Below are positions 53,974 to 59,871 of a stretch of 64,000 nucleotides of DNA, piece by piece. Numbering within the stretch: position 1 is the first letter of the stretch; every line of letters begins with the position of its first letter. The position numbers and the translations under genes were made by a program. The notes beneath the pieces are model-generated. The model was not told the origin of the DNA. It was given only the letters and a program-made list of their open reading frames with translations, and did not search any database. This stretch comes from an uncultured Erysipelotrichaceae bacterium (lineage in GTDB: Bacteria; Bacillota_I; Bacilli_A; RFN20; CAG-826), in the NCBI GenBank assembly GCA_902785645.1, contig CACZZG010000010.1, positions 2,279-66,278 on the forward strand, in the 5' to 3' direction.

Positions 53974-54967
53974 GATCGGCTTCGTCAAATTTCTTCAAGA
54001 GATCTTCAACGGTCAATTTTTGTTTTTCTTCGCCTTTAACATCATAGATGATATGACCCATATGGAACATGATTAGTCTGTTACCATAAGTAATCGCATC
54101 TTTCATATTATGAGTGATCATCAAAGTGGTCATTTCATTTTCTTTAACAATCTTATCCGTTAATTCAAGAACCTTCTTCGCAGTTTTAGGATCTAACGCC
54201 GCGGTGTGCTCATCGAGTAGTAAGATTTGTTTTGTTAAGTCAAACTTTCTGACTTTCTTATCGAATCTTTCATAAGCCTCTAATTTGGCTTGTTTTCTCT
54301 CTTTTCGATTAAGTTTTGCGTCTTTTTTGATGTCTTTAACTTCGTTTTTATATTCTCTTAACGCAGGGATATAGACTTCATCAAACTCTCTTTCCGCGAC
54401 TTTGTGGTCTTTTTCCGAGAATCTAATGTAATCCCTTTTAACCACTTTATGGGTGGGCTTATTACGTAATGTCGCCATCAAGAGGGTGAGAGCTTGTCTT
54501 TGTCCTCCGGACATGACGCCCACCTTTTGATTTAATCGATCTTCTAGACCTAGACCAAATCTTTGGAGTTCTTTAATGAATTCTTTTTTGTTTTCTTTTT
54601 TAAAGCCCCACGCAAATGGTGAATGCCTTCTTCCTCTACGATAAGCAATCTCAAGGTTTTCTAATACTGACATATCGCCAGAAGTACCCATCATTGGATC
54701 TTGGAAGACATGACCAAACCAAGAAGCGCGTTGATGTTCGTCCATCTTGGTAATATCAACATTATTTAATAAGACTTGGCCTTCATCTGGTTTAACCACA
54801 CCCGTGATGATATTCATTGTGGTGCTCTTACCTGAGCCATTACCACCGATAATGGTGACGAATTCACCAGATTCAATTTGTAAATTGATATGGTCTAAAG
54901 CCACTCTTAAATCTTCTTTCACGCCGGTGAGGTTGAATGACTTAGTTACATTTTTAAGTTCTAGCAT
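53954..54967 (-). CDS. ABC transporter ATPase (TrpXYZ/COG1101-type) with about 75-aa insertion
   Basis: GGNGSGKST, VFQDP, MSGGQRQ, LLLDEHTAALDP, ITHN. Confidence 0.9.
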   Translation of the reverse strand: MLELKNVTKSFNLTGVKEDLRVALDHINLQIESGEFVTIIGGNGSGKSTTMNIITGVVKPDEGQVLLNNVDITKMDEHQRASWFGHVFQDPMMGTSGDMSVLENLEIAYRRGRRHSPFAWGFKKENKKEFIKELQRFGLGLEDRLNQKVGVMSGGQRQALTLLMATLRNKPTHKVVKRDYIRFSEKDHKVAEREFDEVYIPALREYKNEVKDIKKDAKLNRKERKQAKLEAYERFDKKVRKFDLTKQILLLDEHTAALDPKTAKKVLELTDKIVKENEMTTLMITHNMKDAITYGNRLIMFHMGHIIYDVKGEEKQKLTVEDLLKKFDEADQKAEQQ

Positions 54968-55914
54968 GTCTGTTTCTTCCTCCCGATTTTCTTAATTAAA
55001 TGAGTAATTCCTTTTCTAATTAAAGGAATACATAAAGCAATAGTGATTAATACTGCATATAACAAACTCTTAAGTTGAGTTGGTAAACCTAATTTAATCG
55101 CAATAGTGATAATGGTGAAATACAAAATCGCACCAAGCGCTACAGAGATTAACCAGTTCTTAAACGAACGTTTACCAAATATCGCTTCGCCGATAAGAAT
55201 GGAAGCTAAACCGATAACTAAATAGCCTGTCGCACTGACCGTCGATACACTTAATGCGTCTTGCACGTATAATGCACCCGCAAGTGCGATAAGACCGTTT
55301 GATATGGCAATACATGTAATCGTGGCAATTGTCGTGTTAATGCCTTGGCTTCTTGCCATCTTTTCATTCATGCCTGTCGCTCTAATGGCCATACCATATT
55401 CCGTACCGAAGAAGTAATAAATACCGACGATAACAATAAGGACGATAACCACCATAACAATAGTTTCCACTAAACGGTTCCATTGATTCCATGGATAGAA
55501 TATCGAATAAATGGTTTGAACAGGGCTATCTGGTGATAGCTTAGAAGCTAATGGGATTTGGGTGCCAAAGAAATCTTGAGGATTAGTAATACCCATAATC
55601 ATTAAAGCGATTGATGCGGAAGCAGTAAGAGTGATAATACCACTTAATAACTTAGGTATTTTTAATATTCTATTTAAAACGCCAGTGATAATACCGCATA
55701 TAACACCGACGAGCATGCCGAGGATTGTCGCTAAGAATGGATTGATACCGCGATAGATACACGCTGCAGTTAAAGCCGCACCTAAAAGGAAACTTCCTTC
55801 AGCGGTCATATCCGCGAAATCGAGAAGTCTAAATGTGAGGAAAACCCCAATTGCTAATAAGCAGCAGGGTAATCCACTTGTTAAAATGTTAAATATAACA
55901 TTTAATACTTCCAT
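54961..55914 (-). CDS. ABC transporter permease (TrpXYZ/COG4120-type)
   Basis: FRLLDFADMTAEGSF, GMAIRATG.N, SNGLIALAGAL, IGLASILIGE. Confidence 0.9.
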   Translation of the reverse strand: MEVLNVIFNILTSGLPCCLLAIGVFLTFRLLDFADMTAEGSFLLGAALTAACIYRGINPFLATILGMLVGVICGIITGVLNRILKIPKLLSGIITLTASASIALMIMGITNPQDFFGTQIPLASKLSPDSPVQTIYSIFYPWNQWNRLVETIVMVVIVLIVIVGIYYFFGTEYGMAIRATGMNEKMARSQGINTTIATITCIAISNGLIALAGALYVQDALSVSTVSATGYLVIGLASILIGEAIFGKRSFKNWLISVALGAILYFTIITIAIKLGLPTQLKSLLYAVLITIALCIPLIRKGITHLIKKIGRKKQTC

Positions 55915-55919
55915 AATAA

Positions 55920-56930
55920 TTAAGCGTTAATGTCAGTCCAATTATGAGCGTTTTTCATTTCTACAGGCATTTCTAAACCCGCTGTAGAGAGATTGGTGCT
56001 ACTAAAGACATAAGAGCAGTTACTTGCAGGAACTGCAGCGACTTTATAATCTGTTGGAGCTTTTTCATTTTTGATTAAAGAAGCGGCCATTTCACCAGTA
56101 TTTTTACCGAGATTGTAGTAATTGATAGATAAAGTGATATGTCCACCTTCTTTGAGCATACCTTCTTCACCACAGACAACTAAAACATTTCCAGCAGTAG
56201 CAGCTTGTTTAACAGCGTTCATATTTGCAGCGATATTATTATCGGTTGGTAAATAGATAGCGTCCACTCCATCAGCCACTAATGCTTCAGCGGTGGTTTT
56301 GATATCGGAAGAGTTAGAACATGTCTTGATATCAGCAGTCATACCTGCAGCTTTAATAGCCGCTTCAGCTTGGTCAGCTTGAACTTTGGAGTTTTCTTCT
56401 GTTTGTGTATACATGATACCTACTTTAGTAGAAGTAGATTTAAATTCTTTCACTAAAGCAATTTGAGCTTCTACTGGGTTAGCATCGGTTGTACCACAGA
56501 CGAATCCAGATGGATTATCAACGGACTTCACTAAACCAGCATCCACTGGATCGGTGACGGCAGTGAATAATAATGGTTTCTTTAAACCGGCATTCACTTG
56601 TGCGCCTAATAATGCTTTTGAGGCACCGGTTCCAATACCTAAATTGATATCACAGCTATCGACGAGATTCTTCGCTAAAGTATTGAGGTCAGCGTCATTA
56701 CCACCAGCATTGGAATATTTAATATTAATCTTATTTGGTAATCCAGCATCTTTAAGAGCATCTTCAAAGCCTTGTCTAGCCGCGCCTAAGGCGACGTGTT
56801 CAACAGGTTGAAGAATACCGACATTGATAGTGTCCTTTTTTGGATCAACAGGAGTGTACTCAGGCTGCTTTCCGCATGCACCGAGTAAGGCGATAGAGAG
56901 AATTGAGAGGAAGAGTAGTTTCTTTTTCAT
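55920..56930 (-). CDS. ABC transporter substrate-binding lipoprotein (COG2984/TrpX-type, aromatic amino acids)
   Basis: Lipobox LGAC, QPVEHVAL, FTAVTDPV, EENS, PTDN. Confidence 0.88.
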   Translation of the reverse strand: MKKKLLFLSILSIALLGACGKQPEYTPVDPKKDTINVGILQPVEHVALGAARQGFEDALKDAGLPNKINIKYSNAGGNDADLNTLAKNLVDSCDINLGIGTGASKALLGAQVNAGLKKPLLFTAVTDPVDAGLVKSVDNPSGFVCGTTDANPVEAQIALVKEFKSTSTKVGIMYTQTEENSKVQADQAEAAIKAAGMTADIKTCSNSSDIKTTAEALVADGVDAIYLPTDNNIAANMNAVKQAATAGNVLVVCGEEGMLKEGGHITLSINYYNLGKNTGEMAASLIKNEKAPTDYKVAAVPASNCSYVFSSTNLSTAGLEMPVEMKNAHNWTDINA

Positions 56931-56948
56931 AAAATGTCCTTCTTTCTT

Positions 56949-56979
56949 AATAAAAGTTTGGCGTTGTTAGCACCAAACT
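56949..56979 (-). terminator. Attenuator terminator upstream of the ABC operon
   Basis: Minus strand AGUUUGGUG-cuaacaa-CGCCAAACU-UUUAUU, ending 18 nt before the ATG at 56930. Confidence 0.75.
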
Positions 56980-57050
56980 GTTCTTCTCATCTTCATTCGG
57001 TGCTATCTATTTATCAATCAACAACACCTAATAGCTAAAAAGCCAAGATA

Positions 57051-57110
57051 CTATTGATTGTCCCTTGGGAAATAAAAGCTATAAAAGTAATAAAATGCGT
57101 TTCTTAACAT
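57051..57110 (-). CDS. Phe/Tyr-rich attenuator leader peptide MLRNAFYYFYSFYFPRDNQ
   Basis: ATG TTA AGA AAC GCA TTT TAT TAC TTT TAT AGC TTT TAT TTC CCA AGG GAC AAT CAA TAG; 8 of 9 consecutive codons are Phe or Tyr; followed by alternative hairpins. Weak SD. Confidence 0.78.
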   Translation of the reverse strand: MLRNAFYYFYSFYFPRDNQ

Positions 57111-57240
57111 AGTCACTTTTTTCTTGGTAATAAATCTAACGCATTTAATCCTTAATATCAATAATTAAATAAAAATCGGTCAAAAATACCGAATTGGACC
57201 ATAAAATTCTAACTTTTTTCAAGAAATTTCAAAAAAAGTG

Positions 57241-57267
57241 AAAAAAATAGAGGATTTCTCCCCTATT
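57241..57267 (-). terminator. Intrinsic terminator (minus strand)
   Basis: AATAGGGGA-GAAA-TCCTCTATT-TTTTT on the minus strand. Confidence 0.75.
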
Positions 57268-57451
57268 AGTTAGTGTAAGGACTTTTTTATCCTTGCCGTT
57301 TGTTATACGTAAGCGTCTCCTAATGACCAATCGGTTCTTGTAGAGCATTTCCCTCGGAACTCGATAGGAGGCGATGCTTATGGAAATAGTTATTATTTTC
57401 TTAACGCTATTTCTATTTTGCCTAGTAGAAATAATTATAAACAAATGCTGG

Positions 57452-58383: not shown

Positions 58384-59871
58384 ATGAAATATCTAAGCAT
58401 TTCAGAAACGGCAATAAAAATGGGATTATCGGAAAGAAGTATCCGTAATTATTGTGCCCAAGGACGTATCCCAGGAGCAATTTTAAAAGGAAAAAGCTGG
58501 TTAATTCCTTTTGATGCTAATAAACCATCAAGAATTAACGGCAAAGAAAATGAATGTGATGAAGAAGCTCTATCTTTGGGTTATGAATTAATCGATTTTA
58601 TCAATAATTCTCCAGTACCTTTTTATGCGATTGAAAATGTTAAACAAAGATTATTAGATGGATCTTATGAACAGAAGTTCGAAAACAAAGATTTTAATTT
58701 GAAACCAGGTTCTAAGGTTTTCTTTATTAGAAACGGTTCTACTTTAATCGCTTTGAATGTCGGCAAAAACGTCAGTAGTGGTAATTGTCATTTCCACATC
58801 ATTGTAAGTCATGACGATTCTCCATGTTTTAAAATCAAACCAGAATGCGATAGCAAAACTGATATTTATAACAAGATCAATGTTGAGACCTATGGTGGAC
58901 TCATTAATTCTACATGGTTAGATAGACCTTTAGGCATCGCTGGTAGAGTAATTGTTAATACTGAACAAGGGTTAGAAACTAGATTAATTAATCTTAACGA
59001 CAATGTCGTGATGATTCCTAATTTATGCATCCATTTCAATCGTGAAATTAACGAAGGATATAAATACGATAAGGCAATCGATTTGCAAGCTTTCATCGGA
59101 CAAGAATTAGAAGGAAATCCACTTAGAGAATTATTAAGTTCACACTTAAATGTGAAAACGGAAGATATTTCTAACTTTGATTTATATTTATATAATCGTG
59201 AATCTGGATATCTTTGGGGCAATAAAAAAGAATACGTCTCCTCTTCTAGATTAGATGATTTGGAATGTGTTTATTGTTCTATGAAAGCATTCTTGCAAGA
59301 AGAAAATGACAACTGCATTAATGTTTTATACATCGCAGATAACGAAGAAGTTGGTTCTTGTTCAAGACAAGGCGCGGATAGTGATTTCTTAGAAACAGTA
59401 TTAGGAAAATGTGTTGATAAATTAGGCGGAGATTATAAAGTTGCTCTAGCAAATTCATTTCTAATAAGCGCGGATAACGCACATGCAGTCCACCCAAATA
59501 AGCCAGGTATTTCTGATGCGGATAATCGTCCATACATGAACAAAGGTATCGCTATTAAATTCAAAGGCGAAATGTTCTATACCACAGATGGCATTTCAGG
59601 AGCGATATTCCAAAGATTATGTGATAGTTCACATACTCCTTATCAATTCTTCACAAATAGAAGCGATATTAGAGGTGGTCATACATTAGGTGCATTACTA
59701 CTTAGCCATGTTTCGATTATGGCGGTGGATATTGGTTTACCACAACTTGCGATGCACTCATCTTTTGAAACCGCAGGAACACTCGATATTAAATATGGTG
59801 TGAACGCATTTAAAGAATTCTATTCCAGTAATATTGAAATAGAAGGCGATAACTATAAGATTTATAAATAA
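58384..59871 (+). CDS. M18 aspartyl aminopeptidase with N-terminal excisionase-like HTH domain
   Basis: SHDDSP, WLDRPLGIAGRV, RLDDL, DNEEVGS, SADNAHAVHPN, QLAMHS; first about 50 aa are an HTH_17-like domain. Confidence 0.9.
   Translation: MKYLSISETAIKMGLSERSIRNYCAQGRIPGAILKGKSWLIPFDANKPSRINGKENECDEEALSLGYELIDFINNSPVPFYAIENVKQRLLDGSYEQKFENKDFNLKPGSKVFFIRNGSTLIALNVGKNVSSGNCHFHIIVSHDDSPCFKIKPECDSKTDIYNKINVETYGGLINSTWLDRPLGIAGRVIVNTEQGLETRLINLNDNVVMIPNLCIHFNREINEGYKYDKAIDLQAFIGQELEGNPLRELLSSHLNVKTEDISNFDLYLYNRESGYLWGNKKEYVSSSRLDDLECVYCSMKAFLQEENDNCINVLYIADNEEVGSCSRQGADSDFLETVLGKCVDKLGGDYKVALANSFLISADNAHAVHPNKPGISDADNRPYMNKGIAIKFKGEMFYTTDGISGAIFQRLCDSSHTPYQFFTNRSDIRGGHTLGALLLSHVSIMAVDIGLPQLAMHSSFETAGTLDIKYGVNAFKEFYSSNIEIEGDNYKIYK

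Follow-up and report, generated by a model that had tools for sequence, protein, structure and literature searches.

The window, a stretch of 64,000 nucleotides from an uncultured Erysipelotrichaceae bacterium, carries an ABC importer operon on its minus strand that is preceded by a short leader, and the question raised by this locus is how the importer is controlled and which amino acid it serves. The original prediction was that a leader peptide rich in Phe and Tyr codons governs a TrpXYZ-type aromatic amino acid transporter by attenuation. The reading favoured here, with a probability of about 0.85, is that a ribosome-mediated attenuator sensing charged tRNA-Tyr, and probably charged tRNA-Phe, controls a CD0873-type tyrosine ABC importer.

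The transporter operon and its predicted substrate

The genes of the operon were assigned by Pfam as follows.

55920–56930, minus strand: lipoprotein-type substrate-binding protein, PF04392, CD0873-like (E 6.3e-51)
54961–55914, minus strand: ABC permease, PF02653
53954–54967, minus strand: ABC ATPase, PF00005, with a 7-nt overlap with the permease gene

The ATG of the binding-protein gene, at 56930, was located just 3′ of the leader terminator. Comparison of the binding protein with the PDB returned the solved aromatic amino acid binders 6HNI (1.3e-37), 3LFT (6.8e-35) and 3LKV (1.6e-30). A CD0873-like assignment, that is, the tyrosine type, fits the protein better than a TrpX-like one. In a published thermal-shift screen CD0873 of Clostridioides difficile bound only tyrosine, and the CD0873 paper describes Glu-263 as binding the Tyr hydroxyl and Tyr-279 as excluding Trp. 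Glu255 and Tyr271 of the window binding protein were found to align with these two residues, and among the leader-linked binding proteins Glu was present in 33/35 and Tyr in 35/35 at the CD0873 pocket positions. The importer is predicted to take up Tyr, perhaps Phe; the expectation of a Phe/Tyr rather than a Trp substrate is thus supported by the Glu and Tyr of the putative pocket, and sharpened to the tyrosine type. Because CD0873 bound tyrosine only, the four Phe codons of the leader are left without explanation. A search of the genome from which the window comes (88% complete) revealed no chorismate synthase, and the host is probably an aromatic auxotroph, hence in need of import.

The leader open reading frame and its codon run

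The minus-strand leader ORF starts with ATG at 57110, ends with TAG at 57053-57051, and encodes the peptide MLRNAFYYFYSFYFPRDNQ as read from the sequence. The ORF, its F/Y run and the five complementary segments S1 to S5 were all where the original prediction had placed them on the minus strand. The promoter-like and coding features are listed here.

57133..57161, minus strand: putative promoter-like site TTGATA, 17 nt spacer, TAGATT (consensus scan)
57051..57110, minus strand: leader ORF, 19 codons plus stop (sequence reading; kept in orthologous upstream regions)
57069..57095, minus strand: codon run F Y Y F Y S F Y F, proposed ribosome stalling zone (sequence reading)

Codons 6-14 of the ORF (57095-57069) comprise four Phe and four Tyr codons and no Trp codon, so that 8/9 are F/Y. 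The chance background was obtained from the host's own 1.17 Mb genome by recording the best F/Y density per 9 codons in all ATG-ORFs of 10-40 codons. At least 6 F/Y in 9 codons occurred in 34/19,105 such short ORFs (0.18%), and 8 in 9 was reached by only three, namely the leader ORF itself and two nested poly-Phe ORFs. The search for a second F/Y leader in this genome gave C13:18923 and C6:33048 as the next-best candidates, and both were rejected as lying within coding regions in another frame. A search for leader peptides of other amino acids in the same genome yielded 60 candidates, of which two Met-rich ones were out-of-frame readings of acidic coding regions and the rest were noise-like.

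The caveat that the Shine-Dalgarno sequence is weak proved true for the window, where an A-rich stretch with GTGA is all that precedes the ATG. A weak Shine-Dalgarno sequence is also seen before the uORFs of the window's genus, and a GGAGG-type one is present before the ORF in about 14 distant leaders. The consensus scan found two promoter-like sites with 1.9 expected, and it is accordingly weak on its own. Two hexamers set as far apart as in this site are visible in genus-level relatives.

Conservation across orthologous leaders

A short F/Y-rich ORF was found in 21/21 relatives' loci with upstream DNA. When a strict criterion was applied (an ORF that starts with ATG and has six or more F/Y among nine codons), 41/43 orthologous upstream regions carried such an ORF, representing 36 distinct leaders that are mutually related, so that leader counts here and below are not independent. 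The two homologous loci lacking the ORF were L034 and L045. The claim that the uORF and its F/Y run are conserved in orthologous leaders was therefore borne out, and it extends to leaders with unrelated helix sequences: across families the sequence of the helices is not conserved, and what is kept is the ORF, the in-frame run and the position of the stop relative to S1. An ATG 5-17 codons before the run always shared its reading frame, and the stop codon lay 3-36 nt after it, in or at S1. A terminator hairpin with a T run occupied the matching place in 36/36 distinct leaders.

The densest 9-codon windows of the 36 leaders comprised 277/324 F/Y codons (Tyr 189, Phe 88) and no Trp codon. Both synonymous codons of each amino acid were used (TAT 134, TAC 55, TTT 63, TTC 25), and variation in the run was limited to changes that keep Phe or Tyr. 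The leader was also far more conserved than the binding proteins encoded downstream, which are 55-67% identical.

RNA segments and hairpins of the window leader

RNAfold was applied to 56931-57130, with 200 shuffles for comparison, and pairing was also scored in an alignment of 20 core leaders (alignment A1), in which helices slid out of register served as the control. The elements identified were as follows.

57043..57068, minus strand: small hairpin P0, CCAAG (57068-57064, Pro-Arg codons) with CTTGG (57047-57043) (alignment A1 pairing)
57041..57060 (core 57060-57047), minus strand: S1, 5′ strand of hairpin P1 (MFE fold, alignment A1 pairing)
57015..57036 (core 57028-57015), minus strand: S2, 3′ strand of P1, with S3 as alternative partner (folding, alignment pairing)
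56996..57007, minus strand: S3, partner of S2 (9 bp) or of S4 (10-11 bp, antiterminator) (folding, alignment pairing)
56977-56968, minus strand: antiterminator-pairing part of S4 (sequence reading)
56949..56979, minus strand: intrinsic terminator, S4 (56979-56971) with S5 (56963-56955), 9 bp, 7-nt loop, then TTTATT

S1 spans the last three codons of the ORF, the stop codon and 10 nt beyond. The T run TTTATT, at 56954-56949, comes directly after S5, and the terminator was also recovered by a consensus scan that gave four terminator-like sites against 0.3 expected. The antiterminator shares the 5′ arm of the terminator in a mutually exclusive pairing, with covariation in alignment A1.

The P0 hairpin holds the leader stop codon in its loop and is followed by a T run at 57041-57037. 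In alignment A1, 92% of its cells were paired with no double changes, and the CCAAG...CTTGG-T-run layout was seen again in other families of the class. P0 and its T run may form a pause or hold element. A T-rich pause hexamer was also looked for close to the stop of the leader and set aside, since the exact pattern was present in only 7/36 leaders; the idea of a pause consequently rests on the hairpin and the T run.

The minimum free energy fold of the window leader contained S1:S2, extended to 20 bp, together with S3:S4, and the centroid contained S2:S3 together with S4:S5. The z-score of the fold was -3.0, with 2/200 shuffles folding equally well. The equilibrium probability of the terminator was 0.31 for the free leader, 0.10 for a leader whose ribosome had reached the stop codon and 0.00-0.25 for one with a stalled ribosome. 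Folding with S1 masked or free, the check suggested originally, did not flip the switch of the window leader at equilibrium: the masked minimum free energy fold keeps S3:S4 and pairs S2 with S5. As equilibrium folding of this leader does not yield the terminator when S1 is masked, a kinetic argument is needed.

The RNA-library runs consist of assembled contigs, from which starts, ends, strand and levels are unreadable. One contig spans 56942-57109, the leader alone, and another (56693-57054) bridges the terminator; the two together are no more than a weak hint of an attenuated leader, and stretches that no contig covers were given no weight. A natural variant at 57005, present in two RNA-library contigs, changes a G.U pair of S2:S3 to G-C.

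Alternative pairing across leaders

A four-link pairing chain with S1:S2, S2:S3 and S3:S4 was scored against dinucleotide shuffles. The full chain was present in 20/36 leaders, with 16/36 failing it, compared with 22/540 shuffles. In other families of the class, where the helix sequences are quite different, it was recovered in 19/26 leaders compared with 13/390 shuffles. Recovery far above the shuffles in both leader sets is in line with the proposal that the position of the ribosome selects the fold.

Terminator probabilities from masked equilibrium folding were mixed and not diagnostic, and truncated or masked minimum free energy folds with shuffles were used instead. With a ribosome placed in the middle of the run, S4 was paired upstream in 32/36 leaders. 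When the ribosome was placed at the stop codon instead, 27/36 leaders formed the terminator and 9/36 did not.

In alignment A1, paired cells made up 89.0% of the ON structure and 92.4% of the OFF structure, with two-sided changes in seven and five pairs, respectively; the slid controls reached 25-52%. The P1 helix (columns 92-111 with 116-138) was 87-95% paired, again with five pairs changed on both sides. Both of the alternative conformations put forward are therefore supported, by 89-92% pairing against 25-52% in the controls and by compensatory changes.

T-box and Rfam searches

The original prediction saw no T-box motif in the leader, and a search with the T-box model (RF00230) agreed, with no match there at gathering score or at E up to 10. 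The whole window gave 0 Rfam matches at gathering score, and when all 4227 families of Rfam 15 were run against 56800-57350 at E up to 10 the only returns were nine chance-level matches (snoRNA, miRNA and similar). The T-box model found three T-boxes in the host's own genome, on tyrS, valS and alaS. T-box control of homologous transporters elsewhere, also anticipated, was found at 13/60 loci sampled in the class, in two other bacterial families. None of the Rfam amino-acid leader families matched the window leader at E up to 10; the set scanned presumably takes in the RF01743 Leu/phe leader and the enterobacterial Phe, Trp, His, Leu and Thr leaders.

A proposed mechanism

Direct support was obtained for the ORF and its codon bias, for the terminator, for alternative pairings that are conserved and covary, for the tyrosine-type pocket and for the lack of a T-box. 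From them we infer that the ORF is translated, that ribosomes stall within it, that the RNA folds in a kinetic order and that the operon responds to amino-acid supply. Transcription would start at about 57126, some 16 nt 5′ of the leader ORF. Given ample Tyr and Phe, the ribosome would cross the F/Y run, reach the stop codon and cover S1; S2, acting as anti-antiterminator, would then pair with S3, and the S4:S5 terminator would halt the polymerase short of the binding-protein gene. A shortage of charged tRNA-Tyr or tRNA-Phe would make the ribosome stall in the run, at least 15 nt 5′ of the stop codon, with S1 left free; S1:S2 and the S3:S4 antiterminator would form and the operon would be read.

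For this to work the ribosome would have to keep pace with the polymerase, and it may be, speculatively, that the CCAAG/CTTGG hairpin and T run at the stop codon pause the polymerase and so synchronise the ribosome with it. With no translation at all the expected outcome is read-through (default ON), which would make the design sensitive to uncoupling of transcription from translation. In B. subtilis, transcription and translation are reported to be uncoupled. The default-ON logic could accordingly serve as a natural probe of ribosome-polymerase pacing in Bacilli besides B. subtilis.

Alternative explanations

It could be that the hairpins act as a riboswitch or as a protein-binding attenuator and respond directly to an aromatic amino acid or some other signal, the short ORF being incidental. 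We consider this unlikely. The S2:S3 hairpin and the terminator, with the right shoulder of the hairpin supplying the antiterminator, have the architecture of the trpB motif, a published riboswitch candidate (RF04312), to which the Enterococcus-type leaders show weak matches (43 and 38.8 bits, where the cut-off is 59); the window itself, however, had no RF04312 match at E up to 10. The insensitivity of the window leader's equilibrium fold to ribosome position also speaks for direct sensing. A ligand pocket, on the other hand, would be expected to bring a multi-stem junction or conserved unpaired nucleotides, which the leader is without, and an incidental ORF would not account for helices that lack conserved sequence across families yet keep the ORF, the in-frame run and the stop-S1 placement. 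Run changes that always preserve Phe or Tyr, and the strong Shine-Dalgarno sequences before the ORF in distant leaders, likewise argue for translation of the run.

Bacilli have attenuation proteins whose targets are triplet repeats, and a TRAP- or PyrR-type protein could bind the repeated UAU/UUU triplets and so shift the hairpins, the run then being a protein array rather than codons. The serial placement of similar triplets directly 5′ of the alternative hairpins suits such an array, but the triplets are contiguous rather than spaced, no candidate regulator gene adjoins in the window, and the run always has its in-frame ATG 5-17 codons upstream and its stop codon 3-36 nt downstream in or at S1; a protein array is accordingly judged less probable again than direct sensing. 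Hardly credible is a chance ORF beside chance hairpins in AT-rich DNA, with a constitutive operon and a leaky or remnant terminator. The 35% GC content does favour Phe and Tyr codons and the promoter scan was no better than shuffles, but an ORF in 41/43 orthologous regions stands against a genome-wide frequency of 0.18% of short ORFs, the pairing chain is rare in shuffles, and chance would not leave a leader far more conserved than binding proteins at 55-67% identity.

Comparison with known systems

The ribosome-mediated attenuator proposed here resembles the enterobacterial trpL, pheL/pheA, pheST and his systems in having a short ORF with cognate codons, alternative hairpins and a terminator, and in the proposal that ribosome position picks the fold. 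It differs from them in sensing, as proposed, Tyr and Phe; in targeting an importer instead of a biosynthetic operon or synthetase; in having five segments and the opposite parity (stalled, S1 free; at the stop, S1 covered); and in belonging to a small-genome member of the Bacilli. The aroR leader 5′ of aroF in Corynebacterium glutamicum likewise mixes Phe with Tyr codons (Phe-Tyr-Phe) in attenuating an aromatic amino acid gene, and according to a review citing Neshat 2014 it responds to Phe, not Tyr. It has just three such codons, in a biosynthetic operon of an actinobacterium, whereas the window family is Tyr-dominated (189 against 88 Phe) and precedes a tyrosine-type importer.

Among Bacilli, the Leu/phe leader of Lactococcus lactis (RF01743) is similarly a cis-regulatory leader element, tabulated as restricted to L. 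lactis; the window did not match it at E up to 10. RF01743 codes for a leader peptide that contains Leu or Phe.

The premise that leader-peptide attenuation is uncommon in Firmicutes needs qualifying, since such control is not unprecedented nearby: comparative genomics has led to the prediction of His leaders in the B. cereus group, Peptostreptococcaceae and Erysipelotrichales (PMC9413887). These also combine a peptide with terminator and antiterminator hairpins, in Firmicutes lineages without a T-box for the pathway, but they use His codons and serve histidine biosynthesis and transport, and the accessible text does not mention a Tyr/Phe leader. The trpXYZ operon of Streptococcus suis (PMC9382623) is a homologous PF04392 and ABC operon with a terminator/antiterminator leader and is induced on shortage of its aromatic amino acid; there, in contrast, a T-box RNA binds uncharged tRNA with no translating ribosome, and the substrate is Trp.

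The trpB motif (RF04312; Narunsky et al. 2024, PMC11109978) is described as a strong riboswitch candidate for which its authors could not exclude a classic attenuator, and as lying, in Firmicutes, mostly 5′ of an uncharacterised ABC transporter that has amino acid transporters as relatives. The likeness to the window leader, a hairpin then a terminator with the right shoulder as antiterminator and an amino-acid-type ABC operon 3′, is one of architecture, not membership; no uORF is described for the motif. At its cut-off of 59 bits RF04312 matched neither the window nor 18 further leaders (of the window's and other-family types), and it was found in 0/150 genomes searched in the host's own phylum. 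The best related matches were sub-threshold and confined to Enterococcus-type leaders (L066, 43 bits; L103, 38.8 bits).

The Enterococcus-type leader L066 did match another Rfam entry, RF02863 (sRNA_2410), above its cut-off. This is a Northern-validated Enterococcus faecium RNA of ~195 nt with two transcripts (Sinel et al. 2017, PMC5593968). It lies directly 5′ of a homologous binding-protein gene and starts within an F/Y-rich short ORF ending ...FFSYFR, and a validated RNA of ~195 nt is what would be expected of a terminated, attenuated leader. It differs from the window leader in being catalogued as a small RNA, with no function given in the available part of its source, and in having no sequence similarity to the window leader.

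Novelty and wider distribution

Full-text literature searches revealed no tyrosine-dominated leader peptide, the nearest being the three-codon aroR, and such a leader appears to be new: a Tyr/Phe variant of a textbook mechanism, in several families of Bacilli. A joint interpretation, put forward tentatively and with slightly less than even odds, is that there is a large unrecognised family of Tyr (and Phe) attenuators on CD0873-type importers in several Bacilli orders, which alternates by family with the T-box, includes sRNA_2410 and explains at least part of the trpB motif as a classic attenuator's two final hairpins. Since a leader not followed by a ribosome would be read through, this interpretation would imply that transcription and translation are functionally coupled in these Bacilli, with the conserved stop-codon hairpin and T run perhaps imposing the coupling.

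On these terms, T-box and leader-peptide control would interchange on one transporter family across Bacilli, and a testable account would be at hand for two orphan RNAs, the Enterococcus 'sRNA' and, in part, the published riboswitch candidate. The leader would assign Tyr, perhaps Phe, to an uncharacterised importer of uncultured, probably aromatic-auxotrophic gut/rumen bacteria. One genome would, moreover, hold two sensors of tRNA-Tyr charging, the T-box on tyrS and a ribosome-based one on the importer. The orders covered by the joint interpretation are the window's small-genome gut/rumen order, Coprobacillus-like and related families, and enterococcus-like families.

The leader of the importer operon

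The minus strand of 56700-57400 was read, and the leader ORF and the five complementary RNA segments (S1-S5) were found exactly as described in the original prediction of a Phe/Tyr leader-peptide attenuator.

Features of the leader and importer operon (basis in brackets)
57161-57133, minus strand, promoter-like TTGATA-17-TAGATT (consensus scan)
57110 (ATG) to 57053-57051 (TAG), minus strand, leader ORF of 19 codons, MLRNAFYYFYSFYFPRDNQ
57095-57069, minus strand, Phe/Tyr (F/Y) run, codons 6-14, F Y Y F Y S F Y F (sequence)
57060-57047, minus strand, S1 (sequence)
57028-57015, minus strand, S2 (sequence)
57007-56996, minus strand, S3 (sequence)
56977-56968, minus strand, S4 (sequence)
56963-56955, minus strand, S5, then TTTATT (sequence)
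56979-56955, minus strand, terminator (consensus scan)
56930-55920, minus strand, substrate-binding lipoprotein (PF04392), first gene after the leader (Pfam)
55914-54961, minus strand, permease (PF02653) (Pfam)
54967-53954, minus strand, ABC ATPase (Pfam)

The promoter-like site would place the transcript start ~16 nt 5' of the leader ORF, although such sites were not above shuffles in the consensus scan. Folding of 56931-57130 with RNAfold (z-score -3.0) gave a minimum free energy structure containing S1:S2 as a 20-bp hairpin (57060-57041 with 57036-57015) together with S3:S4, and a centroid containing S2:S3 and S4:S5. Contigs from RNA libraries, which indicate presence only, included one run covering 56942-57109 and another bridging the terminator (56693-57054).

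Conservation of the leader ORF

The window's own genome (1.17 Mb, 34.9% GC, 88% complete) has 19,105 ATG-ORFs with lengths of 10-40 codons. At least six F/Y in nine codons occurred in 34 of them, and eight in nine in three, namely the leader ORF and a nested pair of poly-Phe ORFs. The next two ORFs by Tyr content were considered as further leaders and rejected, both lying inside coding regions, and no other leader peptide, for Phe/Tyr or another amino acid, was found in this genome.

A homologous binding protein was present in 22 of 61 related genomes searched, and an F/Y-rich short ORF lay 170-270 nt 5' of its gene in all 21 relatives with upstream DNA. Another 23 loci came from public genome contigs of rumen and gut MAGs, which bear the labels Erysipelotrichaceae, Bacilli or Mollicutes. 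A strict ORF criterion was applied to 43 upstream regions, leaving out two that were cut (L013 and L042), and 41 were positive (36 distinct leaders and five duplicates; the ORF was absent at L034 and L045), so that the expected conservation of the ORF and its F/Y run was borne out. The densest nine-codon windows of the 36 leaders (324 codons) held 189 Tyr, 88 Phe and 0 Trp, with both synonymous codons of each amino acid present. Distant leaders, with binding proteins 37-50% identical, had Shine-Dalgarno sites of the GGAGG type, and their runs were almost purely Tyr, with as many as eight such codons in succession. At three loci of the same genus (L019-L021, in genomes G011, G003 and G006) the leaders were nearly identical to that of the window and the binding proteins were 33-37% identical; either conservation is much stronger for the leader than for the cargo, or the leader may have been retained on a divergent paralogue.

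Terminator and alternative pairing

A hairpin and T run was located 12-69 nt 5' of the binding-protein ATG in 36/36 leaders. Folding was then constrained by a ribosome mask placed mid-run, with the RNA cut before the 3' arm of the terminator, or on the stop codon. With the mid-run mask S4 paired upstream in 32/36 leaders, with the stop-codon mask the terminator formed in 27/36, and both held in 24/36. The complete pairing chain was defined as three links, and requires that, with S1 masked, a segment further upstream take the partner of S4 and that this capturing segment pair, with S1 free, with the stretch under the stop-codon ribosome. It was found in 20/36 leaders versus 22/540 dinucleotide shuffles, counts that overstate independence as the leaders are related. 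On an alignment of 20 core leaders, the ON structure (S1:S2 and S3:S4) had 89.0% of cells paired with seven pairs changed on both sides, and the OFF structure (S2:S3 and S4:S5) 92.4% with five such pairs, versus 25-52% for slid controls. A CCAAG...CTTGG hairpin around the stop codon, with a T run, was conserved across families. At window 57005 the same plus-strand A>G variant was seen in both of the RNA-library contigs described above, which stem from different studies; on the RNA it converts a G.U pair of S2:S3 to G-C.

Proposed mechanism and alternatives

The window element is most probably a ribosome-mediated attenuator (probability about 0.85). A ribosome stalled in the F/Y run would leave S1 free, giving S1:S2 and S3:S4 and read-through, while a ribosome at the stop codon would cover S1, giving S2:S3 and S4:S5 and termination. 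The CCAAG...CTTGG hairpin and T run could, speculatively, hold the polymerase until the ribosome arrives, and an exact match to a T-rich pause hexamer occurred near the leader stop in only 7/36 leaders. Because the window fold is ON without translation, the parity is opposite to that of the enterobacterial trp and his leaders.

The predicted switch on covering S1 was not reproduced for the window's own leader, in which RNAfold retained S3:S4 even with S1 masked; the switch must therefore be kinetic, and S2:S3 would form before S4 is made. Equilibrium terminator probabilities were also mixed across leaders. A riboswitch or protein-binding attenuator to which the ORF is incidental is improbable, and a protein that binds triplet repeats is more doubtful again. 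Chance is scarcely credible as an origin of the arrangement.

Predicted substrate and genome context

The window binding protein matched three aromatic amino acid binders of known structure: 6HNI, which is C. difficile CD0873, 3LFT and 3LKV. The CD0873 paper gives their bound ligands as Tyr, Trp and Phe, respectively. That paper credits Glu-263 of CD0873 with tyrosine specificity and Tyr-279 with tryptophan exclusion, and in the HMMER alignment these residues align with Glu255 and Tyr271 of the window protein. Among leader-linked homologues, excluding L022 with its cut gene, Glu was present in 33/35 and Tyr in 35/35. Tyrosine rather than tryptophan is therefore the predicted cargo, in keeping with the non-Trp substrate originally proposed.

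The same genome has three T-boxes, 5' of tyrS, valS and alaS. The first (C4:44956-45187, plus strand, 132.5 bits) lies directly 5' of the tyrosyl-tRNA synthetase gene, so that one genome would sense tRNA-Tyr charging both by T-box and, apparently, by leader peptide. No chorismate synthase (PF01264) was detected in this 88% complete genome, which suggests aromatic amino acid auxotrophy in a small-genome bacterium.

Distribution across the class

Of 301 genomes of the class, 69 contained a homologue with an E-value of 1e-30 or lower, and upstream DNA was compared, in score order and setting the window's own aside, for the best 60 of 82 matches listed. Among these 60, a T-box lay upstream of 13, all in families f11 and f29; an ORF with at least six aromatic codons in nine lay directly upstream of 22, in f16, f24 and f1; and an ORF ending ...FFSYFR preceded four more, in f17 and f30. 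As T-box and aromatic-ORF leaders fall in separate families, the two controls alternate between bacterial families ahead of the same kind of transporter. The aromatic-ORF leaders of these families differ from window-type leaders in helix sequence, and the complete pairing chain was found in 19/26 other-family leaders tested versus 13/390 shuffles; two further ones had no terminator by the criteria applied.

At G300:C3:15210-17553 (L064 and L065), two paralogous binding-protein genes lie in tandem, and each is preceded by an F/Y leader peptide and a terminator of its own. Two f12 loci, L098 and L096, carry the short ORFs MYFYEYWITTS and MHLYEYWVTSFK 5' of homologous binding proteins. These combine codons for Tyr, Phe and Trp and may represent a third type of leader, with Trp among its codons; the pairing chain was found at L098.

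Related RNAs and earlier reports

Leader-peptide attenuation is a textbook mechanism. What appears to be new in the window element is the sensed residue, the transporter as target, the inverted parity, and the wide and previously unrecognised distribution of Tyr/Phe leaders. Histidine leader peptides have been predicted in Erysipelotrichales and other Firmicutes (PMC9413887), a review passage describes a Phe-Tyr-Phe leader in Corynebacterium, and a table entry lists a Leu/phe leader for L. lactis. No tyrosine leader peptide was found in the full-text literature searched, most subscription journals being outside its coverage.

Two orphan RNAs might be accounted for by Tyr/Phe leaders. Leaders of the f17/f30 type match Rfam RF02863 'Enterococcus sRNA_2410' (cut-off 61), L066 at 76 bits and three others at 40-61 bits, and the model starts within the short ORF. 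The sRNA_2410 is described as a 195-nt E. faecium RNA, validated by Northern blot and with two transcripts (PMC5593968), features that would fit a terminated leader. Against RF04312 (cut-off 59), the same leaders gave sub-threshold scores of 43 and 38.8 bits. This family is the 'trpB motif', presented as a strong riboswitch candidate with >900 members, mostly 5' of an uncharacterised ABC transporter (Narunsky et al. 2024, PMC11109978). It is a hairpin and terminator with the antiterminator in the hairpin's right shoulder, and its authors left a classic attenuator possible (PMC11109978). From that description, its architecture equals S2:S3 and S4:S5 of the window leader. The window had no RF04312 match, and the cut-off was reached by 0/150 genomes of the phylum, so this link remains an idea.

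Additional observations

The motif AATTCGGTATTTTTGAC (57179-57195, minus strand), ~50-70 nt 5' of the putative transcript start, is kept in genus-level relatives, with an exact copy elsewhere in the own genome at C11:7380 and near matches at C12:31482, C35:2301 and C7:34777. Part of it is a small hairpin and T run (57192-57176) flagged as terminator-like by the scan. The motif may serve as an operator or UP-like element, or be a repeat. A 71-aa TTG-ORF (57229-57444, minus strand) that has no Pfam match and lies between the leader and the VTT-domain gene is probably no gene, since a terminator-like hairpin (57267-57246) sits inside it. Finally, residues 3-44 of a 495-aa M18 aminopeptidase ORF (58384-59871, plus strand) gave a borderline HTH_17 match (26.9 bits; cut-off 27); the ORF is either an unusual fusion or has its start placed too far 5'.
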